A DNA stretch of 64,000 nucleotides from a virus. This document shows positions 13,404 to 49,617 of this stretch, piece after piece. The stretch lies in UHGV virus genome UHGV-1384413, one strand, 5' to 3'. Under the pieces are notes generated by a model. The model was given only the letters and a program-made list of their open reading frames with translations. It was not told the origin of the DNA and did not search any database. The position numbers were made by a program, and so were the translations under genes. Numbering within the stretch: position 1 is the stretch's first letter; the number at the start of each line of letters is the position of its first letter.

Positions 13404-13490
13404 GGGGAGTTATCCCGTAGAGGTAGCGGTGTAGACTGTAAATCTATTGTCATTGCGACTCGGGTGGTTCGACTCCACCACTCCCCACCA
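13404..13490 (+). tRNA. tRNA-Tyr (anticodon GTA), long variable arm
   Basis: Acceptor ggggagt/actcccc, anticodon loop cuGUAaa, variable arm tgtcattgcgactcg, T loop ttcgact, CCA encoded; D stem imperfect. Confidence 0.65.
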
Positions 13491-31987: not shown

Positions 31988-32985
31988 TGGCAGAGTACAG
32001 ACGTAGAACATGGCGATTATTATTTGGTCGTCCTGTAGAACATGGCGGTAAATCAAAAACCAATATCCCAAAATCTGTTGAAAAGAAAGGAGAGAGTGAT
32101 TCCGGAGTTTATGAGATTAGCTCTGACACTGGTGCTGCCAATATCGAGTTTGACATACAAAAGGACAATACCAAAGAGCCAAACAAAGGCTATGTGACAG
32201 TTTACAACCTGTCTGACGATACAGTTAACTATTTAGATATGCATCAAGCTGATGCTCTTGCAGTTATGTTTGAGGCTGGCTATGATAATGAGAACCAGTT
32301 GATATTCTCCGGAACTGTAGAGTTTGTTGAGGACAGATGGGAAGGTCCGACCAGAAAAACTAAGTTCATCTTTGGGGATGGTACTGAGAACATCATTAAG
32401 TGCCAAAGCACAAGGTCTTATCAGAAAGGCACACCTCTGAACTCTGTGCTTAATGACCTGCTGAAGGATATGAACTTGCCAAAAGGTAGGGTTGTTGGTT
32501 TTGGAAACCAGACTTTACAATACTCTATGGCTTTCTCTGGGAACACTGCAGAGAACCTCCGCAGGTTTGCAAGGCTGACAAACTCAACATTCAGCGTTCA
32601 GGACGGTGCTCTATATTGGACCAAGGTTGGAAAAAGGTTCAAGGACTCTGTATTTGAAATAAGTGCAGAGTCTGGGATGCACGGATCACCCACACCTAAA
32701 AACCCAGAACCTGCTAAAAAACGAAAAGCTAAAGCTGCTGCGAAAGGTGGCACAAGTAAGAAAAAGAAAAACCCGAGAGAGGATGTTGGTCTTACTGTAA
32801 CCACATGTCTTAACGGAGCTATCCTCCCAGAGTCCACCATTTATCTTAAAAGCAGGCAATACACAGGCTTCTATAAGGTGATCACAGTCCATCATAAGGG
32901 CACCATAGAAGGTGGTGATTACACTACAGAGCTTGGCCTTGGGGAAACAATAGGTGGAGTTGTTGACAAAACTGAGGAGGTATAA
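31987..32985 (+). CDS. baseplate hub-region protein (putative)
   Basis: 332 aa; Lys-rich flexible linker PAKKRKAKAAAKGGTSKKKKNPRE; position between tape measure and spike. Confidence 0.4.
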   Translation: MAEYRRRTWRLLFGRPVEHGGKSKTNIPKSVEKKGESDSGVYEISSDTGAANIEFDIQKDNTKEPNKGYVTVYNLSDDTVNYLDMHQADALAVMFEAGYDNENQLIFSGTVEFVEDRWEGPTRKTKFIFGDGTENIIKCQSTRSYQKGTPLNSVLNDLLKDMNLPKGRVVGFGNQTLQYSMAFSGNTAENLRRFARLTNSTFSVQDGALYWTKVGKRFKDSVFEISAESGMHGSPTPKNPEPAKKRKAKAAAKGGTSKKKKNPREDVGLTVTTCLNGAILPESTIYLKSRQYTGFYKVITVHHKGTIEGGDYTTELGLGETIGGVVDKTEEV

Positions 32986-33662
32986 TGGCAATAAATAGGA
33001 AAGATGCTGCTGTAAGATCCTTTATAGAAAAAATAATGAGGGACTACCACACCAGTATCAGGGCCAGAGTTGTCAGTGTAGATTACAGTATCCCTTCTGC
33101 AGCCGTGCAGCCGATAGCTGAAACCACGTTTGATGACGGAGATGTTGAGAGATACCCTCTTATCTATGATGTTCCAATCCAGGTGATGTCTGCAAACAGT
33201 GGGAAGGCAAGGTTAACACTACCAATTAAGGCTGGGGATGTTGTAGGGTTGCAGTTTTCAGAGAGAAATGAAAACAATAACGATGATCAACAAACTCACG
33301 GCCTATTTCCAGGGTGGGCAATAACCTCTGTTCATTCAGACTCGAATGCTTTGCAGATCGATCCTGATAATGTAGAGTTATGGAATGATAGGGTTTATTT
33401 TAAGCTAACACCCTCTGGTGATTTTGAGCTTCAAACACCTGGTGGGACATTACGGTGCGACAGTAGCGGGGAGTTTTCTTTCACCAACGGGGCTGCCAAT
33501 TTACGAGCTGCTGTGGATGGAAATATTAGAATGAATGGTGCCACAATAGACCCATCAGGTAGAATTATAACGGCTGCTGGTGTGGATTTGGACTCATTCT
33601 ATGCAGAATATAAAGGTCATACCCACTCTTGCCCTGATGGCGAGACAAGTGGACCGCACTAA
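32985..33662 (+). CDS. baseplate spike protein (P2 gpV / Mu gp45-like)
   Basis: 225 aa; C-terminal apex motif YKGHTHSCPDGETSGPH resembles the His-containing tip of gpV-type spikes. Confidence 0.6.
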   Translation: MAINRKDAAVRSFIEKIMRDYHTSIRARVVSVDYSIPSAAVQPIAETTFDDGDVERYPLIYDVPIQVMSANSGKARLTLPIKAGDVVGLQFSERNENNNDDQQTHGLFPGWAITSVHSDSNALQIDPDNVELWNDRVYFKLTPSGDFELQTPGGTLRCDSSGEFSFTNGAANLRAAVDGNIRMNGATIDPSGRIITAAGVDLDSFYAEYKGHTHSCPDGETSGPH

Positions 33663-33674
33663 TAGAGGGCTTGA

Positions 33675-34391
33675 ATGGCTACGCTTTATAGTGATATATT
33701 GATGGACCCACAGACAGGTGATTTGGCGATAGACAAAGGTCTTGAGTTGATAGATTCAAACCAAGTAAGTCTGCGCCAGCGCCTGTGGATGAGGTTTAAT
33801 ACATGGAAGGGGAGCTGGTACTTTGATGAGTTGTTTGGCTTCCCTTATATGGACTTTCTCAGTAAGAAGGTCATGAAGACTGTTCTTGATAACAAGATTA
33901 TGGAAGTGGCAAGACAAGAGCCAGATGTGCTAAACATCATAAACTTCCAGTCTACTATGGATCGAAGATCGAGAACATACCAAGCGTTCTTTGAGGTTGT
34001 TACCAAGGAGAACGAGATTGTAAGGCTGGCTTTCGTAGGTCTTGATCAGTTTACCTACCCACAGCCTGATGACGGGGCAACCTCTCTTTGTGATGATGAA
34101 GGTTGGATTAAGTGGGCTAATAAACTGTACTACCTGATCAACTTCAGATTGCCTAGAACTGGAGATGCTACGTGGTGGAACCAGTATGCTGGTCCTGAGA
34201 TGGAAAACCCGATCCCTGTAGGTTCTCTGTTGACTCAGGATAAAGATCTGCTGATGACTGATGCAGAACAAACCATTAACCGCAATACCTGGACGCTTGC
34301 TCCAGATGAGCGCGAATATTCTGGTGTTATTGCTACCTCTAATGATGAGGCTATTGCCAACCAGTCTGGTCGTGCTATTGATGTTAACTAA
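33675..34391 (+). CDS. baseplate wedge protein with gp25/gpW-like N-terminal domain
   Basis: 238 aa; N-terminus MATLYSDILMDPQTGDL..GSWYFDELFGFPY parallels T4 gp25 (LYSDIDPE..FDPEFG) as recalled from memory. Confidence 0.55.
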   Translation: MATLYSDILMDPQTGDLAIDKGLELIDSNQVSLRQRLWMRFNTWKGSWYFDELFGFPYMDFLSKKVMKTVLDNKIMEVARQEPDVLNIINFQSTMDRRSRTYQAFFEVVTKENEIVRLAFVGLDQFTYPQPDDGATSLCDDEGWIKWANKLYYLINFRLPRTGDATWWNQYAGPEMENPIPVGSLLTQDKDLLMTDAEQTINRNTWTLAPDEREYSGVIATSNDEAIANQSGRAIDVN

Positions 34392-34400
34392 GGAGAAATC

Positions 34401-35069
34401 ATGGCTGTAGCTTATCCTACAATACCAATCCCAGATCTTGAAGATGCAGAAACAGTCTTGAGTGATGACTTCTTGGTTGTCAACCAGACTGACGGGACAA
34501 GAAAGGCTAAGATTGATGATGTTGTCAATGATCTTAGCATTACTAAAATAGTTTATTTCACAGAGGGCGGTTATCTTAAGAGCAAGAAGGATTTTGCTTA
34601 TGATCCGGAAACTAAGCGCTACTACACATGGAATGGAGATTATCCTAAAATAATCCTCCCAGATTCCACTGTAGAGGGTGCCGGAGGTGTGTCTGCAAAA
34701 GCATGGTCTGTTTTTGGAGAGCTTGCTGCAACTTCTTCAGGTAGGATAGTTGATTACGGCTCTATTGGTGGTCAACTTGACATGGATCTTGACGTTGCAG
34801 ACACGTTTAAAGTTCGGCTCACTTCAAACACCACAATCTCTTTTGAAAATCAAACAGAAGGGCTCGACGGAGTGGCAAGAACTATAACTGTATGCATAAC
34901 GCAGACCTCTGGTGGTAACAAAGTTTATTGGCCTGACAATGTTAAATGGGCCTACGGAAGAGATCCTATCCTAACATTTACAGCTGGTGCAACAGACATT
35001 TTCAAGTTGGAAACATATGATAATGGACTAACTTGGTACGGGGCACTGATCATCGCAGGAGCTATCTAA
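34401..35069 (+). CDS. tail fibre or adaptor protein sharing the N-terminal anchor domain with the 37704 fibre
   Basis: 222 aa; N-terminal DDFLVVNQTDGTRKAKIDDVV..FTEGGYL..DFAY parallels DDYLVVQQPDLTRRVKIGDVV..FKEGGKL..DFAY of the 37704 ORF. Confidence 0.45.
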   Translation: MAVAYPTIPIPDLEDAETVLSDDFLVVNQTDGTRKAKIDDVVNDLSITKIVYFTEGGYLKSKKDFAYDPETKRYYTWNGDYPKIILPDSTVEGAGGVSAKAWSVFGELAATSSGRIVDYGSIGGQLDMDLDVADTFKVRLTSNTTISFENQTEGLDGVARTITVCITQTSGGNKVYWPDNVKWAYGRDPILTFTAGATDIFKLETYDNGLTWYGALIIAGAI

Positions 35070-35070
35070 G

Positions 35071-37668
35071 ATGCGTATTCAACACAACATTGATAACGTA
35101 TTTCAGATGATCGAGGGGCACAGGAAGTGCCTCGATAATAACACAGGTATTACCAATCTTCCTACACAGAACAAACTGGTAAACCAGGATGGACTTATAG
35201 CGTCAGGTTGGTCAGGGAGTAAGATAAATAATGATTGGGCAATGCATGAGTCCCAAGCTGTGTTGATTCTGGGATACATTGAGGCATACAGGGCATCAAA
35301 AAGCGATTTTTATCTAGACAGGGCCAAAGAGGCTTGGGAAGCCTACAACAGTCATCTTCTGGGCGTATATGCAGTAGAAAGTAAAATGCAAAGATTGTCC
35401 CACTACCCGTTATCCACAGATGGGGTTCCATCGCATGGTGGGTTTAAAGATGTGGTTGTGTCTTTTAACAAAGGTAGAGGAAAAATCCCAGCGGGATCCC
35501 CGACATGGGGAGAATACTTAGACAAGGCTTTTCAGGCGTATAACGGTGTTTTAGGAAGAAACACGGTAGACTCTGATGTTTACGGCGGCACAGATGCTAA
35601 TCCTAATTGGACAACTTCCGGATTAAGTTGGTGGGTTGAGTGGTATATAGCATGGGATGGTAACCGCTATTGGGCCAACGGTAGCATAGCCGACAGTGGT
35701 CATACGTCTGCAGAGTTCGGCACAATCCAACTGCAAGATAAGGGTGTTACAGGCAACCACAAGGTTACCTATTGTGTGAGATTGCCTCAAGAGCAGGGCG
35801 GATCGGTGATACCTGCTGGATCCCCTGTAATTGTAAACCCTATAAACGTGGTTGCAGACAATCAAGCCCCAGAGTTAGACGGAGAAGAGATGTGGTGTGA
35901 CGCTTGTTATCAACTCTATACCTTAACAGGCGAGGAAAAGTATTACACCGCGTTTAAACAGTCTTACAATAAGTTGCTTAATTTCAGCGATATAAACGCC
36001 TACGACAAGCTGTTCAGAAAGACCACGTTGATTAAGGCACCGTTCACGGATGGTACTTGTCTCGTCGCAGGAACAGTTCCTGTCATGAGCAGGGACAGTG
36101 ACGGGTATATCAATTTTAGAATGAACGCTCGCCAGCCTTGCGAAATAATCCAAAAAGGGACTACATACAAAATAGGCAGAGATGCTGAAATTGTTATGAA
36201 TTTCGGAGGAGAAGGGGTTCTGTTCCAGCCACATTTCATCCTTAATGATGGCAACAATAACAAAAAACAGTACAGAATAGGTGTCCCTTTTGGAGGAGCA
36301 GAGGTAACAGAAACAGTTGCCAAGGTTACTGATTTTGTAGAGGTGGTTGGTAAAGACGGTAACCCATATCTCTTGCCAAAAGAGGAAAACATTGCCGTAA
36401 GCGGTGGCGCTAGTGTTAGTATGCAGTATGATACCGACATTTACAACCACTCTGACAACTTCACCCGTTGCAACATAGTAAGAGGCAAGGTAACTTTCAA
36501 TTTTGGAAGAGAGATTTCTTTAAACTCAGTAACTTATCGATCAGATGATGAAATGGTAAGGGTCAAATTTCTTGACAAAGACCGTTGGTTATGGTATGCT
36601 GATCTATATGCCACTAATGGACAATGGATAACAGAAACTCTTACTCTGGGGGATTTTAAACTAGACCCTACACAACCTCATCACACCGAAGAGGAGATTA
36701 AACCTTTCTTTGCTAACACCAAAGGGATCACCTCTGTGGATTTCAGTCTGAGCGACAGGCAGATAGGCAATGGCTTGTTTGATCTGTATTGCGTCAACAC
36801 GCTACCGCAATTTTATGTTGCAGATAGAGATGCTTACCTAATTTGGTTTAGTGTATGGATGGCAAGCAAGACAGAATCAACCGCTAAGGTTGGCGATTGT
36901 TATGTCAGAAACTACAAGCAAGGTGCATACAGGCACACGCCCGGTGTGTTCCCTGCCGGAAAGGTGATAGATAAGGAAAATTATCTCTTAGAGGAAAGGC
37001 CAAGTTGGCCCTATCCTGGTATGCAATACCCAGCAGTTTACTGCATGGGTGCAGAAAACATAGACCGCCATAGATTGTCAAATACAATAGGCTTTCTGTA
37101 TGACTCTCAAGCCTGGTATAACAATACATTTAAGACAGAGGGTCCAGTTGCCTCACGTTATGTATGGCAGAGAGGTAATGAAGGGTTGACTGGTTGGTGG
37201 GAGATGGTAGATAACTCTAAACTCCAGTCAAGATCTTTTGTTGCTGCGTGCCGCACAATATATGAGCTCAAGAAACATAAAGAGCCTGTTGATGAAAGAC
37301 TATTCCTGTTCTGCCAGAAATGGGCATGGTTCCTCAACAGATTCCAGTCATCCCATTCAGGAAATTTGCCTACAGACTTTAACACCTCTGGTGGATACTC
37401 TTATCAAGATAGGGGAGATAGGATGTGGGTGGTAGGTGAATGGCTTGCAGGTTGCTGCTGGCTAGGTCTTTGCGGGTATTCAGAGACAATACCTCAAATA
37501 GATATTGTTGTAGAAGCCTGTATGAAGCTACTGCAAAAGCACCACTTTATTAATGGGGATAATGTTTTAAATGGCTGCTGGGCAGTTTCTGATCCGGTAG
37601 GCTATCACTCTGGCGAAATCCTTCGCGGTCTGGGCCTTTATGCTCAATACCGTGGATTGTACCTTTAA
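35071..37668 (+). CDS. large tail-associated protein, Trp-rich (possible carbohydrate-active tailspike)
   Basis: 865 aa; Trp/Tyr-rich segments such as WWVEWYIAWDGNRYW; no catalytic motif assignable by eye. Confidence 0.35.
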   Translation: MRIQHNIDNVFQMIEGHRKCLDNNTGITNLPTQNKLVNQDGLIASGWSGSKINNDWAMHESQAVLILGYIEAYRASKSDFYLDRAKEAWEAYNSHLLGVYAVESKMQRLSHYPLSTDGVPSHGGFKDVVVSFNKGRGKIPAGSPTWGEYLDKAFQAYNGVLGRNTVDSDVYGGTDANPNWTTSGLSWWVEWYIAWDGNRYWANGSIADSGHTSAEFGTIQLQDKGVTGNHKVTYCVRLPQEQGGSVIPAGSPVIVNPINVVADNQAPELDGEEMWCDACYQLYTLTGEEKYYTAFKQSYNKLLNFSDINAYDKLFRKTTLIKAPFTDGTCLVAGTVPVMSRDSDGYINFRMNARQPCEIIQKGTTYKIGRDAEIVMNFGGEGVLFQPHFILNDGNNNKKQYRIGVPFGGAEVTETVAKVTDFVEVVGKDGNPYLLPKEENIAVSGGASVSMQYDTDIYNHSDNFTRCNIVRGKVTFNFGREISLNSVTYRSDDEMVRVKFLDKDRWLWYADLYATNGQWITETLTLGDFKLDPTQPHHTEEEIKPFFANTKGITSVDFSLSDRQIGNGLFDLYCVNTLPQFYVADRDAYLIWFSVWMASKTESTAKVGDCYVRNYKQGAYRHTPGVFPAGKVIDKENYLLEERPSWPYPGMQYPAVYCMGAENIDRHRLSNTIGFLYDSQAWYNNTFKTEGPVASRYVWQRGNEGLTGWWEMVDNSKLQSRSFVAACRTIYELKKHKEPVDERLFLFCQKWAWFLNRFQSSHSGNLPTDFNTSGGYSYQDRGDRMWVVGEWLAGCCWLGLCGYSETIPQIDIVVEACMKLLQKHHFINGDNVLNGCWAVSDPVGYHSGEILRGLGLYAQYRGLYL

Positions 37669-37671
37669 CAT

Positions 37672-37692
37672 AGGGGGCTGTTTGCCCCCTTT
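37672..37692 (+). terminator. hairpin terminator
   Basis: gggggc-tgtttg-ccccc then TTTC. Confidence 0.5.
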
Positions 37693-37703
37693 CAGGAGAA
37701 AGA

Positions 37704-40700
37704 ATGGCTGATATTAAAGTTGTCAGAATTGAATCTCTTCCTGCCACTACCGCAGTGACAGAGGATGATTACCTGGTTGTTCAACAACCAGACCTGACCC
37801 GTCGTGTAAAAATTGGCGATGTTGTCCATGTTGATGGGACTGTTTCTCATGTAATCTCCTTTAAGGAAGGTGGTAAGTTAAACGGCCCAATGGATTTTGC
37901 CTACTTCGAAGAGGAAGACCTCTACCTGCGTTGGAAAGGCGAATTTCCACACACTGTCCCTGCACTGTCTTCACCATACTCTGACGGTGGGATTACTGAC
38001 GCTGCATGGATGGTGTATACAGACCCGTCATTAAGGGAGGAGCTGGAGTCTACCATTGGTGCGTCTATGATTATGACAGCCGAAGGGCAGTCTGTCCAGG
38101 ATGTAATGGATGTTACTGTTCAGACAGCCAACGATGCTAAAGCACTTGCACAGCGGGTAGATTTTGGCACAGTGCATACTGTAGGCGATGTTATTCACCT
38201 TGTCAACTTTGTTGGTCCTGCAGTTATTGAAGAGGGAAGAACTACTAACTACCCTTCTGAAGCAGCTGGTGAAAAATTTCTGAACGGTGTGGTATCTCGT
38301 CGTGATACTACAACTGTTGATGGCATTTTCCGTGGCGCTACCTCCGGAGCTATGTATACCATTGCAGTAACCAACGGTGTAGCAACAACAAAAAGAATAG
38401 CACTTCGTGACGAATTTAAACGCCTGGAGGCAAACAACCCAACAAGAACAGTTATCCGTGCCGGAGATGATTTAAACACGGCAGGGTACTTGCAGCTTGA
38501 TGCAACAGGCCGTTGGGGTATGTGGAACCAACAAACAGCCTCGTGGCAACCTCTTGCTATAGAGCAAGGCGGTACAGGAGCCAGAGATGCCGCAGGTGCA
38601 CGCATTAACTTAGGGGCTTTCTATAAGCAACGTGCAGCCCTTGAGGCAAATTTCAATATCAATAACTTAACTGGTAATCAGGATGGTGTATACTACCAGC
38701 CGATGACTGCTAATGCAACTGAGGCAAATGGTTACCCTGCGGGTTCTGGTGCGGGTCACTTGATTGTTTGGCAGAACAATGCTAACGGCGGTACAGGTTG
38801 TCGTCAGGAATACTATCCATTCTCTAACGTAGATGTTTGGTATTTGAGAACCTATCAGGCCAACACAAATCAGTGGACTGCATGGCAGCCGATGGTCAGA
38901 CCTCGTAACGATGATACCTTTAGAGCGCACATCGGTCTCGGGTCTAGAAATTCCCCTACCTTCGGGCACCTTTACCTGTCTCAAAGTTCTGCTGATGTTA
39001 AGTCAGCATCAGGTATTGTTAACGGGGACAAATACAACGCTGACGGTGTCCTTGAGCATGGTTATAGGATCTACTCTGAGGTAAGAAACGACAATAAAGC
39101 TTGGTTGACAATCCACCTGCACAAAGGTGCAAAAGGATCTGAAACTCACAGATATTTAGGTTTCCGCGAAGACGGAGTATTAGACTGCCCTAAATATATG
39201 CAGGTTGGTGATCTGAACGGTCAGCTGGCAAACTGGGGACTTGGAGAATGGATCCGCAGTTCAGGGGCAGAAAGAGGTTTCTGGGGATCTAAGAAAGCCG
39301 CCAAGATGGTCATCTGGGATGGCGGGATGGACGAATCCGGTAACGGCAGTTTGGAATGGGGTGTTTATAACACCCGGAAAGCTAAATGGGAACCACTGCC
39401 GATAGCTTGTGGTGGTACCAGTGCCAGGACTGTAGGGGATGCTCAAGCACAATTCAGAATCCCTCTGGCAGCAGGCGCTAGACCCTATGTAAACCTGCCT
39501 AGAACTGCAGCTATGCAGGACGGTAAGTATTATCCTATTATCGTCAGAACTGACCCCAACTTTGCAGCAACTATCGGGACAGATTTGACCATTGTCACCA
39601 GATCTTCTTCTGGCGGTGACCCAATGAACTGTGCTACACTACAGTGTCACTACAGAACTGGTGGCTGGACAGACAGAGGTGATTCTTTCCAAGGGGTTAT
39701 TAATTTCTACCAAAACGAGAGAGCAATCCTCGGATGTGTATCTCCAACCAGAGGTAAGCAGGAGTATGTTGCATTCTATGTAGAGGCACGTGCATTCCCT
39801 GTTACAGTATATGCTGGCGCTACTGTAATAGAAGTGTCAACCAGGGAGGCTGATTGGCAAGTAGGCAACGTGACAGGTAACCAAGATGGTGTCAAGTTCT
39901 GTGCTCCTCTGGAATCTGCAGATTTGAGTCTTGCAATCAAAGGTGATGATGTAACAAACACCAGACCTCTGGTTGAGTTCAAAGGAACATCAGGTTTCTA
40001 CACTGGTGGTGGAACTATGTGGCACTACCTGGGGACTCCTGAACGCTATGCAGTGATGAGCAAAACGAACATGCCTAAAGTCGAGCTGTGGGCAGACGGT
40101 CTTGACTATTTGTGCTACGGCAGTCCTAGAAAGGCATTATTCTCTAACGCGGGATTCCAGTGTGCATCTGACGGAACAGAGGATCTAACTAACGGCACGT
40201 TTACCTCTAAATGTGGTAATGGTGCTGGCCTTAAAGGCCAAGCAGAGTTCAGGTCTACTCCAGAAGCTGGTCAAGTTATTGTTCGAGATGTTGTGGGAAC
40301 AGCTCATAGATTCTACAACTTCAACAAAGATGGTACTTTCTCAGCCCCAGGTGGTTTTGTATGTCATACTGGTGGAGACTGGAACAACCAGTTCGGGCCT
40401 AATAACCCGTCAAAAATAATGGCTGGCAACGTCAACGGACCAGAAGGTTCGATGGTTGTTGGTGGACTGTCTGTGGCGTTTTCTGGAAACTATGCTTTCC
40501 AAATGGCTGGTCGCCTTGATCAGTTATACACCAGATCTATTGAGGGTGGTAACCACAGGGCGTGGAACAAAGTTATTCAGCACCGTGGTCAAGGTCTGGG
40601 GACAGAAGACCTTAATGACTACGATGGTAGCCGTGAAGGTTTCTATCACCAAGGTTCAAACGCTGACGCACTTGTAATAGATCGCCACTACCCTGCTCCA

Positions 40701-41510: not shown

Positions 41511-41515
41511 CTGTT

Positions 41516-41547
41516 TTGCCCTCGCTTCGGCGGGGGCTTTTTGTTTG
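41516..41547 (+). terminator. rho-independent terminator
   Basis: gccctcgc-ttcg-gcgggggc then TTTTTG. Confidence 0.75.
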
Positions 41548-41569
41548 TATTGCGTATTAACTCAAAATC

Positions 41570-41579
41570 TGGTAAAATA
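41570..41579 (+). promoter_or_regulatory. extended -10 promoter element TGGTAAAATA
   Basis: Same 10-mer as at 23907, 27428 and 47388; 30 bp upstream of ATG 41610. Confidence 0.45.
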
Positions 41580-41609
41580 ACTATCATGATTGTTTAACCT
41601 GGAGGCACA

Positions 41610-42200: not shown

Positions 42201-42753
42201 GATGATTAGAGCGCCATTAGATAATTTATTTCTTGAAAAGCTGGAGCTTGATAGTGTTGAGATCTTAATTGCTGCAAAGCTAGAGCTACCAACAGGGACT
42301 GTCAGGGTGTGCTCAGGAACTGGTGTTGTGGTGATTGAGGGGCAACATTTTATAGGGATAGGTGGATCAGCAACATTGACTGCTGTGTCTGAGAAAGATG
42401 CCACCAACTTCGGATCTGTGGTAGCAACATTGAACGGATTTGATCCCAAGTATGTAGGTGATCTGCTGAAGACAGAGTATTCGGGTTGTCGTGCCACGTT
42501 GTATATCACAGCTATGGAGAATGGTTTACCTGTTACAACCAATGGCTTGTTTGACGGCCTTATAACAGACATGGCTATTCAGACAGGGGAGAATAGTGCT
42601 TTGTCCATATCCATATCTTCCATCTTCAACAGCTGGTTAAGAGGTTTTCCTTATCGATACACAGAGGAGAGCCATAGCTCAAGAAACGATAATGACAGAT
42701 TTTTTAAATATGTGGATCAGGTGGCAAGCCGCCCGATCATTTGGGAGGTTTAA
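42187..42753 (+). CDS. tail-tip-associated protein
   Basis: 188 aa; overlaps both neighbours. Confidence 0.35.
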   Translation: MRISKMIRAPLDNLFLEKLELDSVEILIAAKLELPTGTVRVCSGTGVVVIEGQHFIGIGGSATLTAVSEKDATNFGSVVATLNGFDPKYVGDLLKTEYSGCRATLYITAMENGLPVTTNGLFDGLITDMAIQTGENSALSISISSIFNSWLRGFPYRYTEESHSSRNDNDRFFKYVDQVASRPIIWEV

Positions 42754-43178
42754 TGAGCACACACCCTCGTTTAGTGGACTGGCAAGAAAGATTGTGGAAA
42801 GTGTTTGACGAAGAAGCCACCGTCCCGTTTGAATGGGGATTCCACGATTGCTGCACTTTTGCGGCTAAGTGTGTTGATGCCCAATACGGAACAGATTTTC
42901 TTTCTAACTTTGAAGGAACGTATAAAACAGAGTTGGAAAGCAAGAGATGGTGCATGCTTCGTTTCAAAACCACACATCTGCCTACTATTTTTGATCTCTT
43001 TTTGACTCGACTGGATACTCCTAAACAGGTTCAGCGTGGGGATATTGTTATTTTCGAAGGTCTGAACGGGCTCACCGCTGGTGTGTTCTGGAACAACCAG
43101 ATTTGGGCGAAAGGTGATAAAGGGATCTTTATGTTTGACATGAAAGATTCTATCGTTGTTGATGTCTGGAGGTATTAA
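42741..43178 (+). CDS. tail-tip-associated protein (possible gpK-like Cys-containing domain)
   Basis: 145 aa; WGFHDCCTF Cys-containing motif; stop overlaps the J-like start. Confidence 0.3.
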   Translation: MGGLMSTHPRLVDWQERLWKVFDEEATVPFEWGFHDCCTFAAKCVDAQYGTDFLSNFEGTYKTELESKRWCMLRFKTTHLPTIFDLFLTRLDTPKQVQRGDIVIFEGLNGLTAGVFWNNQIWAKGDKGIFMFDMKDSIVVDVWRY

Positions 43179-46100
43179 TGCCAATTGCAATGATTGATAA
43201 CATCGTTGCTTCTGCAAGATCTTCGAGCTATGACTGGAACGCATCCAAGGCAGCTCTGGCTGACAGCCTGAACACTGTTACCACCAGAACCTTGGATAAG
43301 ATTTTCGAAGGCAACAAATCTTACAGAAGTCAGCAAGATAGACAAAAGCTCCTCAGATCTTCTGCTGCACCTTGCTCTGTAGTGTATGGGAAGACACGCA
43401 CATCTGGATTGCTTGCGTTTTTGGAGCAGGACAGGGACAGAACCCTTCATTGTGCTATTGTTCTTGCCAATCACCCTCTGGAAGGTGTAGAAGATATACT
43501 TATCGACGGTAATCCTATTTCCTCATATGGAGATTTGGTATCTTGGGAGCTACATAACGACAGAAAAACCTCTGATCCTTTCATGGGCACACACTGCCCT
43601 TCGTGGTCACCAGACATGATAGGTAGAGGGATCAGTTGGCTACGTGCCAGCTTTAAGTTTGACCCTAACAAGTTTCCTTTTGGGTTGCCGAACGTTACAC
43701 TCGTCAAAGTTGGTAAAAAATGTTATGATCCTCGTATCAGTAAAGAGGTGTATACCAATAACGCTGCCTTGGTGATTCTGGACTATCTAAGAACGTACCT
43801 TAAATGTCCTGACGAAACCATCAACTGGGAGTCCTTCAAGGAGGCTGCCAACATATGCGACGAGGCTGTAAGAAACGCAGACGGAACCAGTGAGCGTCGT
43901 TACACCATTAATGGAGAGTTCGACATGGATGAAGCACCAGCAAGCATTATGGCAGAAATGCTGAAAGCTTGTGGTGCAGATCTTAGCTATGTAGCTGGCA
44001 AATATGGTCTGCTGGTAGGTGCATATTATGGCCCGGCAACAATGACACTGAGTGAGGACTGTGTTTGCGGTGAGGTTAAGATCTATCCGGAAGCCTCTTT
44101 CGACAAGAGATCGAACACAATAACTGGCAGATTTACTAGTCCAACCAAAGGGTATTCTGAAACAGATTTTCCATCAGTGTTTGTCCCAGAGTGGATAGAG
44201 AAGGATGGAGAAAGAAAGATAATCGATATAGATTATCGCTTTGTTACCAGCCCTTATCAAGCTCAGCGTGTTTCTGCAATCTTCTTAAGACGTGCCCGAG
44301 CTGGCAGGATTATTGAAGTAACCTGCAATATGCGAGGTTTTAAATTTAAACCTGGGCGTTACGTTACGATGAATCTTCCAAGTATTGGTATAGTGGGCCA
44401 AGAAATGAGGGTTCTTGAGTGGGAGTTCACCAAAAAGGGAGGTGTCAAGGTAAAACTTCGTCAAGATGCCAAAGAGTGGAACGATGCCACAGGACAACTT
44501 CCGGATTCTGGAGATGTAGATATTCCGATATCTCCATCCGGCGTAGCTCAACCGCAAAACTTCAGATACTCTGTTCTTCAAGCTGGAGAAGTAACTCACG
44601 GTGTTTTGGCTTGGGACAACGTTGGAACTTATGCTCAAAATATTGTGCAGGTAAGAAAGAACGGAGAGATTATTTGGACAGCACAAACAGTAGAGCAGTT
44701 TGTCCGTGTAGAAGGATTGACCAAAGGGTCATACACAGCAACCGTGGTTGCAACATCTTATAAAGGTGGTGTATCTCCAGAAGCGTACTGCGAGTTTAAC
44801 ATTCAGGCACCTGAAGCTCCGGTTTCTGTAGAAGTTAAGCAGGGATACTTTGCTATCACCTTGATTCCGCACAGCAGGGACTTAGCAAGTGTAAGCACCC
44901 AGTATGACTTTTGGACATCTGGTATGACAAGGTTGCCAGACACAAGTGATGCAACCGTTACTTCAAAAGCCACTCGTATGGGTGTTGGTTCAACTTGGAC
45001 ATCTGAAGGTCTGCAGAACGATAAGATCTATTATTGGTATATTCGAACCACAAACGCTTTTGGTAGTTCTCAGTTTATAGAATGCGCTGCACGCTGCTAC
45101 ACCTCTATTGAAGATTTGATGCCTCAGATAGATGCTGAATTTAAAAAGACAGAAACTTATAAAGAGTTGATGAGCACTTTAGATTCCTCTATCGAAGAGG
45201 TTGAAAATCGTGTCACAGAACTTAACAGGTACATGGATGGTAGAGTTGACGAGGCTTTTGACCACATGGAAGGTGAGTTCTCTAGAGTAGACAAGCTGTA
45301 TGCTCAGTTGGGGGATAGGGTTGGAATATTCATCCAAGAAACCCACGACAACTTCCAGGACGTTAATGGAACGCTTACCACTCTAGACCAGAAACTGGTA
45401 GCCACTCAGAACAAGTTTGCAGATGATCTTTCTAAAGAAAGTGGTAAGCTGACTTCTCTAATACAGACCACTAACAAAGCTACAACCGATCTGTTAAATC
45501 AGAAAACTGAAGCTTTGGACGAGAAGATTTTTTCAACAAGGGGTGAATTGGAAGATGCTTTGGCACAGGAAAGCTCTGAGCTGAACTCTCTGATTGTTTC
45601 AACCAATAAAACGACTACAGATCTCCTTAATCGGAAAACCGAGGCTTTAGACAATAAGCTGACAGCAACGAAAGGTGAGTTGACCAACAACCTGCAGAAT
45701 GAGAGTGCTAAACTATCATCCTTAATTGAGTCAACCAACAAATCCACCACTGATCTTCTTAATAAGAAAACAGAGGCGTTGGATGAAAAACTGGTTGCTG
45801 CACAGGGCGAGTTGACTGAGCAGATCGGAGATGTTGAAAAAGGCTATCTGGCTGGTGATAAGAGCCTAGAGGGCAAGTTGAATACTCAAAGATCTGAGTT
45901 GGATGCGAGCATTCTGAGCACTAACCAGGCCACTGTGGACTTGCTGAACAGAACTTCTGAGACTCTTGACCAGAAGATTAGCCAGACCAACGCCACAGTG
46001 TCCAAAAACTACACCACGCTTGATGGTAAGATAAACACCGCCAAGTCTGATCTTAATACGTTGATTTCTACCACCAACAAGGCCACAACTGACCTATTGA

Positions 46101-47323
46101 ATCAGAAAACGGCAGCTTTGACTGAGCAGTTAACCACTGCTAAAGGGCAGATTACAACCAACACCAATAACATTACCGGGTTGGATAATAAGCTGACTCA
46201 GACTAAGAAAGAATTGTCTGCGAATATTTCTGAAACTAATAAGTCTACTGTTGACCTTATTAATGGCACAGCGTCAGCTATTCGTCAAGAACTTGCTGTT
46301 GCTAAGCAGGAGATTATTGATGATGTTGGAGATGTGACCGAACTCAGAGCTGCAGTGGCTACAACATCTAAGGCTGTGACCGACTTAGAGGGCAAAGTAA
46401 ATGCTCAATGGGGCACAAAAATACAGGTAGACTCTGCAGGGAATAAGTATGTGGCAGGTATCCAGTTAGGCATGGAAGGCTCTGGAGGCCAAGTTCAGTC
46501 ATATTTCATGGTTAGCGCAAACAACTTTGCGGTATACAACCCAGGCAATGGAACAGCAACCCTTGCTTTCGCAATCAAGAACAACCAAGCGTTCTTGAAA
46601 GACGCTTTTATAGAGAACGGCACGATCTCTTCTGCCAAGATCGCGCAAGAAATTTCGTCAAACAACTACGATGGCAACGGGTACCACAAATACGGTTGGT
46701 ATATTAACAAGAACGGGCACGCCCAGTTTATGGATGTGTGGGTGAAAGGTAACATCAACGCTAGTGCAGGTAACTTCACAGGGGCAGTTAACGCCACCAG
46801 TGGTACCTTCCGTGGAGATGTTTATGCCAACAATGGTAGCTTTAGAGGGACCATAGATGCAACAGGAGGTACATTCCGTGGACGTGTAGAAGCTTCCGTT
46901 ATCCGTGCTAACCAGTTCGAAGGTGCGATTGTTGCACACAGGACTTACGGAGATTGTGCTCCAGTATATAACTCGCAGCAAAGGGTTTGCCGTTGGAGGT
47001 GGAGATATGTGGACAACGTGCAAGGCCAAGGTAAGAACGTAACATTCTTCTTTAAACTGAATGGTACTCTTGCCAGCTCCCAACTGAATGCATGGATAGC
47101 TGGTCATCAGATCCTTGCTGGCAAGAAGTATTTTAACGACAACAACGGCATGTGTGCGGTAGGGATAACAGGTCTGGGTGAACAAACTATAGACATTGTT
47201 ATCGAGATTTACACACCGTGGTCAACGTCCAGCGTGACAGGTGTCACAATCTCCTGTCCCACTGTGATCGTTAGTCGTTCTAACTCAAGCTTCCAGGGAC
47301 CTTGGAACGAGTCTCACGACTAA
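43178..47323 (+). CDS. central tail fibre, lambda gpJ-like, with inserted coiled-coil repeat array
   Basis: 1381 aa; QGYFAITLIPH..YYWYIRTTNAFGSSQFIECAA and C-terminal KYVAGIQLGMEG..NAFLKDAFIENG parallel lambda J (PGYFQITATPH..YYFYIRSVN; HYVAGIGLSMED) as recalled from memory; about six tandem ~40-aa repeats STNK[AS]TTDLLN.KTEALD.KL. Confidence 0.65.
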   Translation: MPIAMIDNIVASARSSSYDWNASKAALADSLNTVTTRTLDKIFEGNKSYRSQQDRQKLLRSSAAPCSVVYGKTRTSGLLAFLEQDRDRTLHCAIVLANHPLEGVEDILIDGNPISSYGDLVSWELHNDRKTSDPFMGTHCPSWSPDMIGRGISWLRASFKFDPNKFPFGLPNVTLVKVGKKCYDPRISKEVYTNNAALVILDYLRTYLKCPDETINWESFKEAANICDEAVRNADGTSERRYTINGEFDMDEAPASIMAEMLKACGADLSYVAGKYGLLVGAYYGPATMTLSEDCVCGEVKIYPEASFDKRSNTITGRFTSPTKGYSETDFPSVFVPEWIEKDGERKIIDIDYRFVTSPYQAQRVSAIFLRRARAGRIIEVTCNMRGFKFKPGRYVTMNLPSIGIVGQEMRVLEWEFTKKGGVKVKLRQDAKEWNDATGQLPDSGDVDIPISPSGVAQPQNFRYSVLQAGEVTHGVLAWDNVGTYAQNIVQVRKNGEIIWTAQTVEQFVRVEGLTKGSYTATVVATSYKGGVSPEAYCEFNIQAPEAPVSVEVKQGYFAITLIPHSRDLASVSTQYDFWTSGMTRLPDTSDATVTSKATRMGVGSTWTSEGLQNDKIYYWYIRTTNAFGSSQFIECAARCYTSIEDLMPQIDAEFKKTETYKELMSTLDSSIEEVENRVTELNRYMDGRVDEAFDHMEGEFSRVDKLYAQLGDRVGIFIQETHDNFQDVNGTLTTLDQKLVATQNKFADDLSKESGKLTSLIQTTNKATTDLLNQKTEALDEKIFSTRGELEDALAQESSELNSLIVSTNKTTTDLLNRKTEALDNKLTATKGELTNNLQNESAKLSSLIESTNKSTTDLLNKKTEALDEKLVAAQGELTEQIGDVEKGYLAGDKSLEGKLNTQRSELDASILSTNQATVDLLNRTSETLDQKISQTNATVSKNYTTLDGKINTAKSDLNTLISTTNKATTDLLNQKTAALTEQLTTAKGQITTNTNNITGLDNKLTQTKKELSANISETNKSTVDLINGTASAIRQELAVAKQEIIDDVGDVTELRAAVATTSKAVTDLEGKVNAQWGTKIQVDSAGNKYVAGIQLGMEGSGGQVQSYFMVSANNFAVYNPGNGTATLAFAIKNNQAFLKDAFIENGTISSAKIAQEISSNNYDGNGYHKYGWYINKNGHAQFMDVWVKGNINASAGNFTGAVNATSGTFRGDVYANNGSFRGTIDATGGTFRGRVEASVIRANQFEGAIVAHRTYGDCAPVYNSQQRVCRWRWRYVDNVQGQGKNVTFFFKLNGTLASSQLNAWIAGHQILAGKKYFNDNNGMCAVGITGLGEQTIDIVIEIYTPWSTSSVTGVTISCPTVIVSRSNSSFQGPWNESHD

Positions 47324-47329
47324 CTTTTA

Positions 47330-47356
47330 AAGCCCCGCTTCGGCGGGGTTTATTTT
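47330..47356 (+). terminator. rho-independent terminator
   Basis: agccccgc-ttcg-gcggggtt then TATTTTTAT. Confidence 0.75.
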
Positions 47357-47366
47357 TATGCTCAGA

Positions 47367-47397
47367 TTGACTATTGTTACAAAATTTGGTAAAATAC
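47367..47397 (+). promoter_or_regulatory. sigma70 promoter with extended -10
   Basis: TTGACT 47367-47372, 17 bp, TGGTAAAATA 47388-47397. Confidence 0.55.
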
Positions 47398-47428
47398 CTT
47401 GTAGAGATTTTCATACCGGAGGAGTGAC

Positions 47429-48919
47429 GTGGCTAAGTATGGATTGACAGAGGCTGGTTTCGTTATACCAACCCTAAATGACCTAATCGTTGAAACTAAG
47501 CAAAGCCTGATCCGTGCTTTTGGCGAAAACTTCAACGTACAGAGTAACTCCGTTGCAGATAAGCTGACCACTATCTTCAACGAGCGAGAGTATCAACTTA
47601 TTCTTATGGCAGCATCTGTATACGCATCGCAGACGCTGTATGGGGCAGAAGGTATTTACCTGGATGAGCTTCTTGGAAGACAGGGTATTTACCGAAGAGG
47701 CCGTTCTAAATCATCAGGTACCTGCCAGTTGACAATCAACACAACTGTGCCGTACAATATGATTTATGATTCCAAAACTTATACACTGGACAGTGGCAAC
47801 TTTGTTCTTAGCAACGATGTGCAGGTGGCGGGAAATCTTATTGCTCACAGAATAAACGCTCCAGACCTAAGAATTGGGAAATACAACTTTCAAATTACCA
47901 ACCAGACAGACGGAAGTATCAAAACAAAAAGTCTGGTTTTAACAGATAAGGCTCTGGACTCTTCTGATTTGCCAAGCTTTTACGGCGAGATTAAGCAATT
48001 CATTGTCGATAATACAACCCTGCTGAATGATGATTTAATTCAGATAGATATGTTGACAGGGACGTTGTGGATAGGGTACAATTCGAATCTTGATCAAGTT
48101 GGACTTAATAGTAGGGTAGATTTCAGAGTATCCCCGATTGTAGGGGAAAGAACTATCACCCTAGATGTTATCGCTAACGAGGCTGGTGAGCTGTCAAGAG
48201 AGGCAGAAACCGTGACAACAATGTCACCTACTCCCAGCGGATTTATCAAGCTTACCAACCGAGAAAGATTCAATGAGGGCAGGGATGTTGAGAAAGACTC
48301 TGAGTATCGCCTAAGAGCTTCCAGCACTAAGCAGTTAACATCTAAAGCTACCCGCCCTGCAATTCTTAGCGCTGTAAGCGAGGTGAAAGGTGTTGAGAAA
48401 GTAAGAGTGTTCTCCAACAACACCGATAAAACGGATGCGAAAGGTATACCACCTTATAAGTTTCAAGTGGTGGTGTTTGGTGGTGCAACAGAGGATATCT
48501 GTCAGGCGCTGTATCAAACCATAGCTTGCACAAACAGAACTTATGGGAATATCTTCTACGATATTACCACATCAGACGGTCAAACTGAAAGGATTTATTA
48601 CTCCAAGGCAAATACCTACCGCCTAGATGTAAGAATTACCTACTCAGGTGCTGCGCTTTCCACAACCGAAAAAGATGCCATTGTAGAGGCTCTTTTGCAG
48701 GTTGTTAACGGACTGGATGTTGCAGATACGTTGTACAATATCCAATTGGTTGGTGCTGCATCAGCTGCTGTGTCAATAGGCAGATTTAACAGACTTGTAA
48801 TTCAAGTCAAACCTGTGGGGGCCTCTGATGAAGCTTACACTACAAACGATATTGTTGCAAACATGACTGAGGTGTTTGACCTAGACGAAAGTAATATAAC
48901 TTTCCAACAAACTATTTAA
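47429..48919 (+). CDS. baseplate J-like wedge protein (P2 gpJ / T4 gp6 family; GTG start)
   Basis: 496 aa; N-terminal region and C-terminal AKGIPPYKFQVVVFGG..YRLDVRITYSGAA resemble Baseplate_J proteins. Confidence 0.5.
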   Translation: MAKYGLTEAGFVIPTLNDLIVETKQSLIRAFGENFNVQSNSVADKLTTIFNEREYQLILMAASVYASQTLYGAEGIYLDELLGRQGIYRRGRSKSSGTCQLTINTTVPYNMIYDSKTYTLDSGNFVLSNDVQVAGNLIAHRINAPDLRIGKYNFQITNQTDGSIKTKSLVLTDKALDSSDLPSFYGEIKQFIVDNTTLLNDDLIQIDMLTGTLWIGYNSNLDQVGLNSRVDFRVSPIVGERTITLDVIANEAGELSREAETVTTMSPTPSGFIKLTNRERFNEGRDVEKDSEYRLRASSTKQLTSKATRPAILSAVSEVKGVEKVRVFSNNTDKTDAKGIPPYKFQVVVFGGATEDICQALYQTIACTNRTYGNIFYDITTSDGQTERIYYSKANTYRLDVRITYSGAALSTTEKDAIVEALLQVVNGLDVADTLYNIQLVGAASAAVSIGRFNRLVIQVKPVGASDEAYTTNDIVANMTEVFDLDESNITFQQTI

Positions 48920-48930
48920 GGCGGTGAGAT

Positions 48931-49617
48931 ATGGCAGAGATTAAGTCGGATGTCAACCACATCCACACTCTGCCAGATTTTGTTCAGGGAGGTCTTGATT
49001 ACCTGCCTGGGGATTTTCTGGCTGAGAAGGTTAATTTAGTCACATTCTTAACCGTGTACCTTAAAAGGTTGGAGAATGTTGATAAGATGCTGGTAGGTTT
49101 GGCTGAAGGAAGATTGCTTAACAATGCCAGCGGAAGATACCTTGATGAAGTTGGTAATCAACTTGGTATTCTTAGGAATGGGCTTTCAGATGCTGATTTT
49201 CGTGCTACGCTGATTATTCAGCAGGCAGCATCATCAAGAGGTGGTACTCGCGAAGATGTCATCTCCACCTTACGGCAGTTGTTCGGAAGAGACAATTTCG
49301 ATACGTGGAAAGGTGACAACTTCAGATTTGACATAAATATTAGAAAAACTTGCTTCGACATATTACAGTCCATCGATCAAATCTTAGATATGCTACCATT
49401 ACCTTGTCATTTGCGTCTTACAGAGTCGCAAGGGCAAGCTTTTGGTTTTGAAGGGGACTCTACAGCTCTCGGCTTCGGGTCGGTGTGGGAAGAAAACCAG
49501 TTCGGTGTCGGTGGGTTGGCTACTTTGTTATATGTTCCTGACGTAAGACCTGATTGGGATACCACAACTATTTATTGTGAAAGTATTACAGTAAACGCAA
49601 CTAGACAGGAGGGTTAA
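48931..49617 (+). CDS. baseplate protein, P2 gpI / Mu gp48-like
   Basis: 228 aa immediately after the J-like gene; ..LDYLPGDFLAE.. N-terminal pattern and gene order match tail protein I. Confidence 0.45.
   Translation: MAEIKSDVNHIHTLPDFVQGGLDYLPGDFLAEKVNLVTFLTVYLKRLENVDKMLVGLAEGRLLNNASGRYLDEVGNQLGILRNGLSDADFRATLIIQQAASSRGGTREDVISTLRQLFGRDNFDTWKGDNFRFDINIRKTCFDILQSIDQILDMLPLPCHLRLTESQGQAFGFEGDSTALGFGSVWEENQFGVGGLATLLYVPDVRPDWDTTTIYCESITVNATRQEG

Follow-up and report, generated by a model that had tools for sequence, protein, structure and literature searches.

A split baseplate locus in an rV5-like phage and the fibre and siphophage-type tail-tip cassettes held at its junction

Introduction

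The stretch of DNA analysed here, the 64,000-nucleotide (nt) viral sequence UHGV-1384413 (the window), carries on its + strand a tail locus in which the core baseplate genes stand in two places. A spike gene (32985-33662) and a sheath-initiator gene (33675-34391) come first, and two wedge genes (47429-48919 and 48931-49617) follow after seven further + strand genes, with 13,037 bp between the initiator stop at 34391 and the wedge 2 start at 47429. The baseplate genes of phages P2 (V-W-J-I) and Mu (45-46-47-48) are adjacent. All four roles recur in the window in unchanged order (spike, gp25-like, J-like, and I-like), but its counterparts of W and J lie 13 kb, seven genes, and two terminator-promoter junctions apart, and a contiguous V-W-J-I operon is not present. 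A sequence-only reading of the window had located the four baseplate open reading frames (ORFs), which lie on the + strand, and put their separation at about 13 kb, and both points are borne out. It attributed the gap to several large fibre genes inserted into the baseplate operon or, failing that, to wrong wedge assignments. The evidence described below makes it highly probable that the window holds an rV5-like locus with two transcription units and a gene-tolerant junction, at which two cassettes reside: cassette A, composed of tailspike and fibre genes (34401-41510), and cassette B (41610-47323), a captured siphophage tail tip.

Identity of the Locus

Region 32985-49617 was compared by megablast with 50,697 phage records, of which 126 matched. 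In 113 of these 126 records, at least 80% of the region was covered in a single collinear place at 90-97% identity. Judged by this similarity, the window represents the tail-baseplate-fibre locus of Vequintavirus, rV5-like myophages of Escherichia coli, and the genomes of the matching phages are ~131-140 kb in size. An assembly artefact, whether a misassembly or a chimera, was ruled out as the source of the split, because 113 independent collinear records share the gene order. Phage rV5 and other Vequintavirus members, including vB_EcoM-ECP32 and the BASEL phages Bas49-Bas59, share this gene content and gene order with the window, their nucleotide identity being 90-97%. Between 18 and 23 records labelled "Campylobacter phage" (GenBank MG0656xx, host Campylobacter jejuni) are 92-93% identical to the E. 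coli Vequintavirus locus, which suggests that they are mislabelled or contaminant genomes.

The rV5 genes from gp49 (the tape-measure protein) to gp27 (the last large fibre) map one to one onto the window, with gp45 corresponding to the spike, gp44 to the sheath initiator, gp43-41 to cassette A, gp40-37 to cassette B, and gp36 and gp35 to the wedges. The anchors gp45, gp43, gp41, gp37, and gp36 are confirmed by the rV5 paper (PMC3606486), while the remaining numbers are assigned here from gene order. The split is visible in the published rV5 genome and in phi92, and it is already known as a genome layout. In the BASEL paper of Maffei et al., the region from the tape measure to the last fibre is regarded as one 'lateral tail fiber locus', and it is described as unclear which genes build which fibres (PMC8594841). 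Published annotations of rV5-type phages neither present the slot separating the sheath initiator from wedge 2 as an insertion site of variable content nor recognize cassette B as a complete siphophage tip module.

Core Baseplate Genes

The 225-amino acid (aa) product of 32985-33662 is a central baseplate spike of the gpV/phi92 spike type. It matches Pfam family PF18352 (E 1.4e-9) and is 47.6% identical to the phiTE spike (phiTE_232) and 60% identical to the SSE121 spike. The adjacent gene (33675-34391, 238 aa) encodes the sheath initiator, which has the role of T4 gp25 and P2 gpW. This protein is homologous to sheath initiators in the PDB, including those of phiTE (9mjn, 5e-61), phi92 (gp139, 3e-16), Bas63 (gp022, 2e-7), and Pam3 (gp21, 3e-3). 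No Pfam family was matched at E ≤ 5, the GPW_gp25 model included, and membership in the sheath-initiator class therefore rests on homology to solved structures.

The second pair of genes encodes the wedge. Wedge 2 (47429-48919, 496 aa; T4 gp6/P2 gpJ role) matches Baseplate_J (PF04865) at 4e-9, and its 36.6 bits exceed the gathering score of 21.1, in agreement with the J-like call of the sequence-only reading. The same protein belongs to phrog_6 and in the PDB matches, over its full length, phiTE wedge 2 (1e-158) and phi92 gp145 (9e-56), as well as Pam3 gp22 (8e-8) and Bas63. Wedge 1 (48931-49617, 228 aa; T4 gp7/P2 gpI role) is homologous to phiTE wedge 1 (2.5e-67) and phi92 gp146 (3.8e-23) and matches phrog_4056, a baseplate protein family. 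Searches of Pfam and NCBIfam with this protein returned no match, the best being DUF2612 at E 0.25; in this it differs from the P2/Mu situation, as the I-like protein of the window lacks a detectable relationship to any Pfam family. The gpI role of the 228-aa protein is thus indicated by its structural homologues and not by a sequence match to a curated gpI-type family.

It could be argued that 47429-48919 and 48931-49617 encode fibre or adaptor proteins and that the baseplate genes are not truly split, given that the 228-aa protein has no Pfam match and that one public annotation names it a 'putative tail terminator protein'. Both products, however, can be aligned over their entire length with wedge 2 and wedge 1 of phiTE and with gp145 and gp146 of phi92, chains that were modelled in baseplates solved by cryogenic electron microscopy (cryo-EM), and the larger protein scores above the Baseplate_J gathering threshold. 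The wedge-chain matches already refute this alternative, to which we attach next to no credence, and with it falls the earlier suspicion that the wedge assignments were wrong.

The phiTE wedge consists of two wedge-2 chains and one wedge-1 chain, which form a canonical trifurcation unit (PMC11972413), and the phi92 wedge is described likewise (PMC13450770). The phi92 paper is inconsistent on stoichiometry, with one gp145 and two gp146 in its text and gp145-i, gp145-o, and gp146 in the legend to its Figure 3J (PMC13450770). The chain counts of PDB entry 21vq, two for gp145 and one for gp146, together with phiTE (PMC11972413), support two J-like proteins and one I-like protein per wedge. By analogy with these two baseplates, the wedges of the window phage would likewise contain two copies of wedge 2 and one partner.

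Putative Terminators and Promoters at the Junctions

The two strongest terminator-like hairpins between 32 and 50 kb delimit cassette B on the + strand. The first (41518-41537; GCCCTCGC-TTCG-GCGGGGGC followed by a T-run) lies past the stop codon of the 1268-aa gene and would close the unit containing the hub, spike, initiator, and fibre genes. The second (47330-47351; core CGCTTCGGCGGGG) lies past the stop codon of the 1381-aa gene and would close cassette B. The core CGCTTCGGCGGGG occurs exactly twice in the window. Each hairpin was identified in a terminator scan and is followed at a distance of ~35 nt by TGGTAAAAT. Ahead of cassette B, this sequence forms the extended -10 element (41570-41578) of a promoter-like site at 41550-41578 (+ strand), and ahead of the wedge operon a second promoter-like site at 47367-47395 (+ strand) consists of TTGACT, a 17-nt spacer, and TAAAAT with TG; both were found as motif matches.

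The window contains seven copies of the motif TGRTAAAAT, against 1.9 expected, and all are on the + strand of the structural module; the motif is usually accompanied by a TTG-type -35 element 17 nt upstream. The copies at 23907, 27428, 41570, and 47387 occupy clear gaps just upstream of + strand genes, those at 12853 and 19371 overlap listed ORFs with uncertain starts, and the one at 58827 lies inside the 1875-aa fibre gene (56881-62508), where it may be a chance match or an internal promoter. The hairpin, T-run, TGRTAAAAT motif, and a ribosome-binding site precede wedge 2 in every Vequintavirinae locus examined. In addition, the junction at 47324-47428 is 79% identical to that at 41511-41609 over 94 aligned positions (score 29.5, compared to -6.6 ± 4.2 in shuffles), which fits a duplicated junction. 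Such direct-repeat junctions could mediate precise loss of cassette B by recombination.

These signals predict a layout in which a first unit, running from the tail chaperones through the tape-measure, tube-initiator, plug, hub, spike, and sheath-initiator genes to cassette A, would end at a terminator; cassette B would follow with its own promoter and terminator; and a further promoter would drive wedge 2, wedge 1, and additional fibre genes. The core baseplate genes would accordingly be divided between two transcription units, one ending with the spike and initiator and the next beginning with the J-like and I-like wedges. Additional genes can be accommodated at the conserved junction between them because no translational coupling spans it. 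The earlier proposal of an insertion into the baseplate operon is in this respect to be modified, as the site is a boundary of two transcription units, with a terminator and a promoter, rather than the interior of an operon.

Cassette A: Tailspike and Fibre Genes

Three + strand genes are appended directly to the sheath-initiator gene, the first of them starting 9 nt past it with no terminator between. This gene (34401-35069; equivalent to rV5 gp43) encodes a small tailspike-anchor protein of 222 aa, which matches Pfam Tail_spike_N (E 3e-10) and phrog_7760 (tail fiber) and has weak PDB matches to the N-termini of CBA120 TSP3 and Sf11 gp13. The second gene (35071-37668; equivalent to rV5 gp42) encodes a large tail protein of 865 aa that matches phrog_2871 (tail protein, 1169 bits). 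This protein had no match in Pfam or in the PDB sequence search; slot genes of SSE121 and Ro121c4YLVW encode homologues that share 35% identity with it along the full length. The third gene (37704-41510; equivalent to rV5 gp41) encodes a large variable fibre or tailspike of 1268 aa with an N-terminal Tail_spike_N match (2.5e-10) and, at its C-terminus, a Peptidase_S74 self-cleaving chaperone domain (1.8e-16). In comparison with phage EduardKellenberger, the 1268-aa protein is 92.8% identical at the amino acid level, against 97-100% for its neighbours.

The Tail_spike_N anchor (PF18668) is thus found on two proteins, of 222 and 1268 aa, which are 38% identical over ~100 N-terminal residues. An anchor of this family on more than one spike or fibre protein characterizes the branched tailspikes of CBA120 (the TSPs) and G7C (gp66), and the window shares this feature. 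The cassette A products are most likely assembled into a branched tailspike or fibre at the periphery of the wedge, comparable to fibre I of phi92. The three genes of this cassette are what remains of the claim that the gap is filled by several large fibre genes, as only they, out of the seven, are classical fibre or tailspike genes.

Cassette B: A Siphophage-Type Tail-Tip Module

The other four genes (41610-47323), more than half of the block, constitute a siphophage-type tail-tip module made up of a distal tail protein (Dit), a hub piece resembling gpL, a DUF6950 protein, and a pb3/gpJ-like protein that combines hub and central fibre. All four are on the + strand. The first (41610-42200; equivalent to rV5 gp40) encodes a 196-aa Dit of siphophage type, which matches phrog_1302 (distal tail protein, 2e-50). 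Its AlphaFold2 model has a predicted local distance difference test score (pLDDT) of 85, and Foldseek aligned it with T5 Dit pb9 and DT57C Dit (E 1e-8 to 4e-8, probability 1.00, template-modelling score ~0.6). The second (42187-42753) encodes a 188-aa hub subunit resembling gpL and g13 of gene transfer agents (GTAs), as indicated by phrog_2048 and by the fold of its AlphaFold2 model (pLDDT 76), which matched the T5 pb3 N-terminus (1.6e-6), lambda gpL (1.5e-5), and hub chains of JBD30, T1, and the GTA RcGTA. The start of this gene was placed 15 nt later by the BASEL annotators, and some of its homologues are named DUF2163 by their sources.

The third gene (42741-43178) encodes a 145-aa protein that matches Pfam DUF6950 (6e-34) and occupies the position that belongs, in lambda and GTA modules, to the NlpC/P60-type peptidases gpK and g14. 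Its alignment contains conserved D-C-C and RGD-I/V motifs and no conserved histidine, and comparison of its profile with lambda gpK using hhalign was not significant (probability 5%). The hhalign comparisons of the three small-protein profiles with lambda gpM, gpL, and gpK were likewise not significant, and the Dit and gpL-like assignments therefore depend on predicted folds. Homologues of the 196-aa protein were collected with a profile built from viral-contig loci, as a single-sequence search gave only near-identical proteins. Pfam scans of 21 diverse homologues of the 196-aa protein and 18 of the 188-aa protein revealed no family, NCBIfam scans gave nothing either, and PDB sequence searches returned nothing for the 196-, 188-, and 145-aa proteins.

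The fourth and largest gene (43178-47323; equivalent to rV5 gp37) encodes a 1381-aa hub and central-fibre protein of the lambda gpJ/T5 pb3 type. Its parts are a hub at the N-terminus, FN3/Ig domains, a coiled-coil insert of ~300 aa, and a J-like distal fibre whose C-terminal half varies, and the protein matches Pfam Ig_J, Ig_J_second (3e-30), and Phage_Tail_Tip (7e-39) as well as lambda J in the PDB (8iyk, 9e-28). The match to the NCBIfam model lambda_TipJ (7e-43) reached 146 bits, far under the 1950-bit cut-off, and the protein is for this reason not considered an orthologue of lambda J. A profile of residues 1-501 matched T5 pb3 at 4.8e-12, and Pfam Phage-tail_3 was reached only at E 0.099.

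Among the components of a siphophage tip, a Dit fold, gpL-like and J/pb3-like hub proteins, and J-type FN3/Ig and distal fibre domains were found within the cassette. The position differs from that of a siphophage tip, which directly follows the tape-measure gene, as cassette B follows a fibre gene and a terminator, 11 kb past the only tape-measure gene. It therefore resembles a siphophage tip in its parts and cannot be classed as the tip of this phage's own tail. The description of the intervening genes as a fibre block consequently fails for more than half of them. No paper was found that describes cassette B as a complete Dit/hub/J module, although coverage of the literature was incomplete and this is weak evidence of novelty.

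Relatives of Cassette B

The closest counterparts of this arrangement are found among siphophages. A tblastn search with the first 501 residues of the 1381-aa protein identified genes with 44-57% identity in 43-64 kb genomes of E. coli, Serratia, and Brenneria phages, along with more distant genes in Vibrio and Pseudomonas phages. In the Seuratvirus SLUR25, the tape-measure gene is followed by four genes, whose products comprise 195, 195, 145, and 1005 aa, the last being a host specificity protein. These are 33, 40, 45, and 58% identical to the products of cassette B, which has the same four genes with corresponding sizes, order, and overlaps. Annotations of Vibrio phage D63 and Pseudomonas phage MR15 show this layout too, in D63 as the series distal tail protein, tail protein, hypothetical protein, and tail fibre, and in MR15 with DUF2163 as the second gene.

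The four-gene order was kept in 84 of 84 loci containing all four genes. Among 77 non-Vequintavirus viral contigs (9-81 kb), no homologue of the sheath or baseplate genes of the window was found near the four-gene locus. A tape-measure-sized ORF stood directly upstream of the Dit homologue in 53 of these contigs and was probably missed in the rest through gene-start placement; since this placement is imperfect, tape-measure adjacency relies on the three annotated siphophage genomes.

Other well-characterized tips share individual elements with the cassette: T5, the Dit-like fold of pb9 and homology to the pb3 hub; lambda (M, L, K, I, J), the gpL-like fold and the FN3 and distal fibre domains of J; and RcGTA (g12-g15), the g13-like fold of the 188-aa protein. 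No equivalent of lambda gpI was identified in the cassette. In contrast to all of these tips, cassette B belongs to a phage with a contractile tail, stands apart from the tape-measure gene, and has a promoter-like site of its own, and its 1381-aa protein differs from the siphophage homologues by the coiled-coil insert (residues ~687-991) and by a different C-terminus.

As counted in identity bands, ~119 records contain the Dit gene at ≥90% identity and ~118 contain wedge 2 at ≥95%. The other myophage loci examined contained no homologue of any of the four genes. On this evidence, cassette B is essentially universal in Vequintavirus and absent from the other genera of the subfamily.

A Slot of Variable Content Between Initiator and Wedge 2

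Comparison with other phages possessing the same baseplate proteins provided a clearer understanding of the split. One relative with a baseplate solved by cryo-EM is phiTE (Certrevirus, Vequintavirinae; 9cuy/9mjn). Its tube initiator, plug, hub, spike, sheath initiator, and both wedge proteins are homologous to those of the window at 40-57% identity, and the same terminator-promoter junction stands ahead of wedge 2. It differs in that its slot is empty (89 bp), its 177-aa initiator is without a C-terminal tail, and its fibres are encoded only downstream of wedge 1. The slot is also without genes in TH18 (105 bp), A5-4 (91 bp), the Erwinia phage pEa_SNUABM_56 (Henunavirus; 97 bp), and the Vibrio phage PWH3a-P1 (91 bp), and the initiator-wedge 2 gap is 0 bp in Felix O1. 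One gene occupies it in Aeromonas phage PAc and in Barbavirus, three in SSE121 (Seunavirus), six in Klebsiella phage K54_rec6 and in Phapecoctavirus, and seven in the window.

Phages phi92 and Phapecoctavirus (Stephanstirmvirinae, 21vq) have a split as well, with gp139 as the initiator, gp140-144 as the fibres, placed in the slot of phi92 by their numbering between gp139 and gp145, and gp145/gp146 as the wedge. This slot includes the endosialidase gp143, the N4 gp65-like protein gp142, and homologues of the 865-aa protein and of the C-terminus of the 222-aa protein. In contrast to the window, these phages have no Dit/hub/J cassette, and their core proteins are only 25-35% identical to those of the window.

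Slot content is lineage-specific, as the Klebsiella genes are unrelated to those of the window, while Seunavirus (SSE121) and Phapecoctavirus share homologues of the 222- and 865-aa proteins, the latter being a conserved slot occupant in both. Synteny supports the proposal of an insertion to the extent that relatives with the same baseplate proteins keep the four genes contiguous. The refined reading is that of a recurrent, lineage-variable slot (0, 1, 3, 6, or 7 genes) in which gains and losses are both likely. Because occupancy varies across lineages, the split is not an oddity of this genome, and the initiator/wedge junction is a recurrent variable cargo site for receptor-binding genes.

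A gene that has taken both positions illustrates this variability. The + strand gene at 49617-51689, directly after wedge 1, encodes a 690-aa fibre related to N4 gp65 (non-contractile tail sheath TIM-barrel; Pfam PF23845, 1e-79) that also contains a Calx-beta domain. Its homologues are located in the slot in Phapecoctavirus and phi92 (gp142) and after wedge 1 in the window and TH18. The Phapecoctavirus gene (14754-16805), between the sheath initiator and wedge 2, is 43% identical. The family, represented by phi92 gp142, has been linked to ECA/NGR glycan recognition.

Gene order downstream of wedge 1 was constant throughout the loci compared. Farther downstream in the window, two paralogous short-tail-fibre genes (51702-52742 and 53755-54801, 43% identical) flank a Caudo_TAP chaperone gene (52757-53341) of the lambda gpK-type tail-fibre assembly kind, and other Vequintavirinae genera have a single short-tail-fibre copy. 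The structural genes as a whole form a ~52-kb + strand module, which is bounded by strand and GC-skew switches at ~9-10 kb and ~62.5 kb and is closed by the 1875-aa fibre gene (56881-62508).

The C-Terminal Tail of the Sheath Initiator

An alignment of 12 sheath-initiator homologues linked slot occupancy to the length of the initiator itself. Residues ~173-238 of the window protein (nt 34191-34388) form a C-terminal tail that is present only in phages with an occupied slot. In five of the six empty-slot phages, the initiator (174-183 aa) stops no more than six residues past a conserved GDxTW-WNxW motif; the sixth, Felix O1, has a 139-aa initiator from which the whole C-terminal region is absent. 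All six occupied-slot phages have additional residues, 25-65 in number or 260 in Barbavirus. Presence of the tail in 6/6 occupied versus 0/5 empty slots corresponds at face value to one in 462 arrangements, with the qualification that the lineages do not count as independent cases. In Vequintavirus, Seunavirus, and the Klebsiella phage, the tails can be aligned with each other (NP-I/V-P-x-G-S/T-LL). In Rheinheimera phage Barba25A, a single 441-aa ORF (12103-13428) combines the sheath-initiator domain with the ~260-aa extension, and a pectate-lyase-type gene stands between this fused initiator and wedge 2.

In solved baseplates, the helix at the C-terminus of phiTE's initiator joins the N-terminal bundle of the long fibre, and the C-terminal arm of the phi92 initiator moves upon contraction. 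The tail of the window protein may similarly help to dock appendages encoded in the slot, or at least it may travel together with them in recombination.

Origin and Role of the Cassettes

The two cassettes differ in what can be said of their history. For cassette B, the direction of change is securely a gain, and the most likely source is a Seuratvirus-like siphophage. Cassette A may represent either a gain or an ancestral state lost elsewhere. Several considerations weigh against the reading of the junction as a site at which cassettes were inserted and at which a captured siphophage tip now serves the phage. The polarity may be the reverse for cassette A, which could be an ancestral feature that phiTE-like lineages no longer have, as related 222- and 865-aa genes occupy the slot of Vequintavirus, Seunavirus, and the more distant Phapecoctavirus. 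The promoters and terminators are consensus matches only, and regulatory motifs common to both junctions, rather than a duplication, could account for part of their resemblance. No structural study places any cassette B protein in the virion, and two of the four peptides by which the rV5 homologue of the 1381-aa protein was detected were non-tryptic (PMC3606486). Finally, a siphophage tip normally assembles on the C-terminus of the tape-measure protein and nucleates the tube, and it has no obvious partner for this in the present genome.

A rival reading holds that a filled slot was ancestral for the whole rV5/phi92 group and that phiTE, TH18, A5-4, and Henunavirus lost the genes, so that nothing was inserted except perhaps cassette B. 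Besides the shared 222- and 865-aa genes, the homology of the initiator tail in Vequintavirus, Seunavirus, and the Klebsiella phage fits such a history, as does the TH18 initiator, the core of which is 72.6% identical to that of the window and by eye close to that of SSE121, and which ends exactly where the tail starts, as though by deletion. Yet distant relatives with the same baseplate have contiguous genes (Vibrio PWH3a-P1 and Felix O1 and, by numbering, Pam3 gp21/gp22 and Bas63 gp022/gp023), the Klebsiella slot content is unrelated, and cassette B is restricted to Vequintavirus. Moreover, the 865-aa protein is only ~35% identical in SSE121, while the core proteins are 60-71% identical, a disparity that suggests exchange rather than vertical descent. 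On balance, uniform ancestry of a filled slot appears unlikely, although it retains some weight.

A different objection regards cassette B as a decaying or selfish passenger, or as a siphophage fragment joined by misassembly, that does nothing for the myophage. In its favour are the lack of assigned cryo-EM density, the absence of the tape-measure and tube partners of a siphophage tip, and the thin support from virion mass spectrometry. These are outweighed by evidence of maintenance. The cassette is present in essentially every Vequintavirus record, its four ORFs are intact and full length relative to their siphophage homologues, its GC content matches the surroundings, and it carries promoter-like and terminator-like signals of the phage's own type. 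In comparison with EduardKellenberger (~94-96% nucleotide identity over these genes), the ratio of non-synonymous to synonymous substitution rates (dN/dS) was 0 (0 non-synonymous and 26 synonymous changes), 0.008, 0.088, and 0.028 for the cassette B genes, and 0.007 and 0.011 for the wedge genes. Values of 0 to 0.09, with 13-105 synonymous changes, indicate that cassette B is under strong purifying selection like that on the wedge genes. The distal half of the 1381-aa protein, furthermore, shows allelic variation of the kind found in receptor-binding proteins. A passenger without function is accordingly very improbable.

The 1381-aa homologue gp37 was detected in rV5 virions by four peptides, within a mass spectrometry table of 19 proteins (PMC3606486), and gp38-40 were not found by name in the supplement of that paper. 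Of the nine fibres annotated in the Vequintavirus phages Bas49 and Bas54, three were resolved by cryo-EM, and the N-terminal region of one Vequintavirinae fibre was noted as 'common in central tail fibers' (PMC12143355). The legend of Figure S5C of the BASEL study reports two regions of strong allelic variation in the genus (PMC8594841), and the distal, C-terminal half of the 1381-aa protein coincides with one of them. In the present comparison, the 1381-aa protein was the least conserved of the locus, at 80-85% identity versus 96-100% for neighbouring proteins; such variation is typical of a receptor-binding tip.

The reading favoured here, that cassette B is a captured siphophage tip with a function in the contractile-tailed phage, would most likely assign it the role of an additional receptor-binding appendage with a variable distal end. 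The sequence comparisons show the gene identities, the synteny, the regulatory motifs, and the purifying selection, while the direction of transfer, the attachment sites, and any role in the virion are inferences. A fuller version of this reading holds that a complete siphophage tip unit was captured, kept under purifying selection, and transcribed independently, and that it forms a self-standing 'mini tail tip' on the baseplate as an extra receptor-binding device, with the initiator tail as part of its docking. We advance this combination tentatively, as a possibility that falls short of an even chance.

Implications

As the usual arrangement in phi92 and throughout a well-sampled genus, the split adds little new knowledge. 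The value of the finding lies rather in defining the initiator/wedge junction as a natural, transcriptionally insulated site for the addition or exchange of receptor-binding genes, and for this reason the junction is an obvious site for host-range engineering of rV5-like therapeutic phages. Cassette B may matter more, as it is a set of proteins that normally forms the axis of a non-contractile tail and has been kept in a contractile virion with a complete axis of its own. How a siphophage tail-tip set functions in such a virion is worth following up. If the 'mini tail tip' proposal is true, the hub/Dit architecture would be reused off-axis as the base of a fibre, a structurally undescribed mode of baseplate elaboration.

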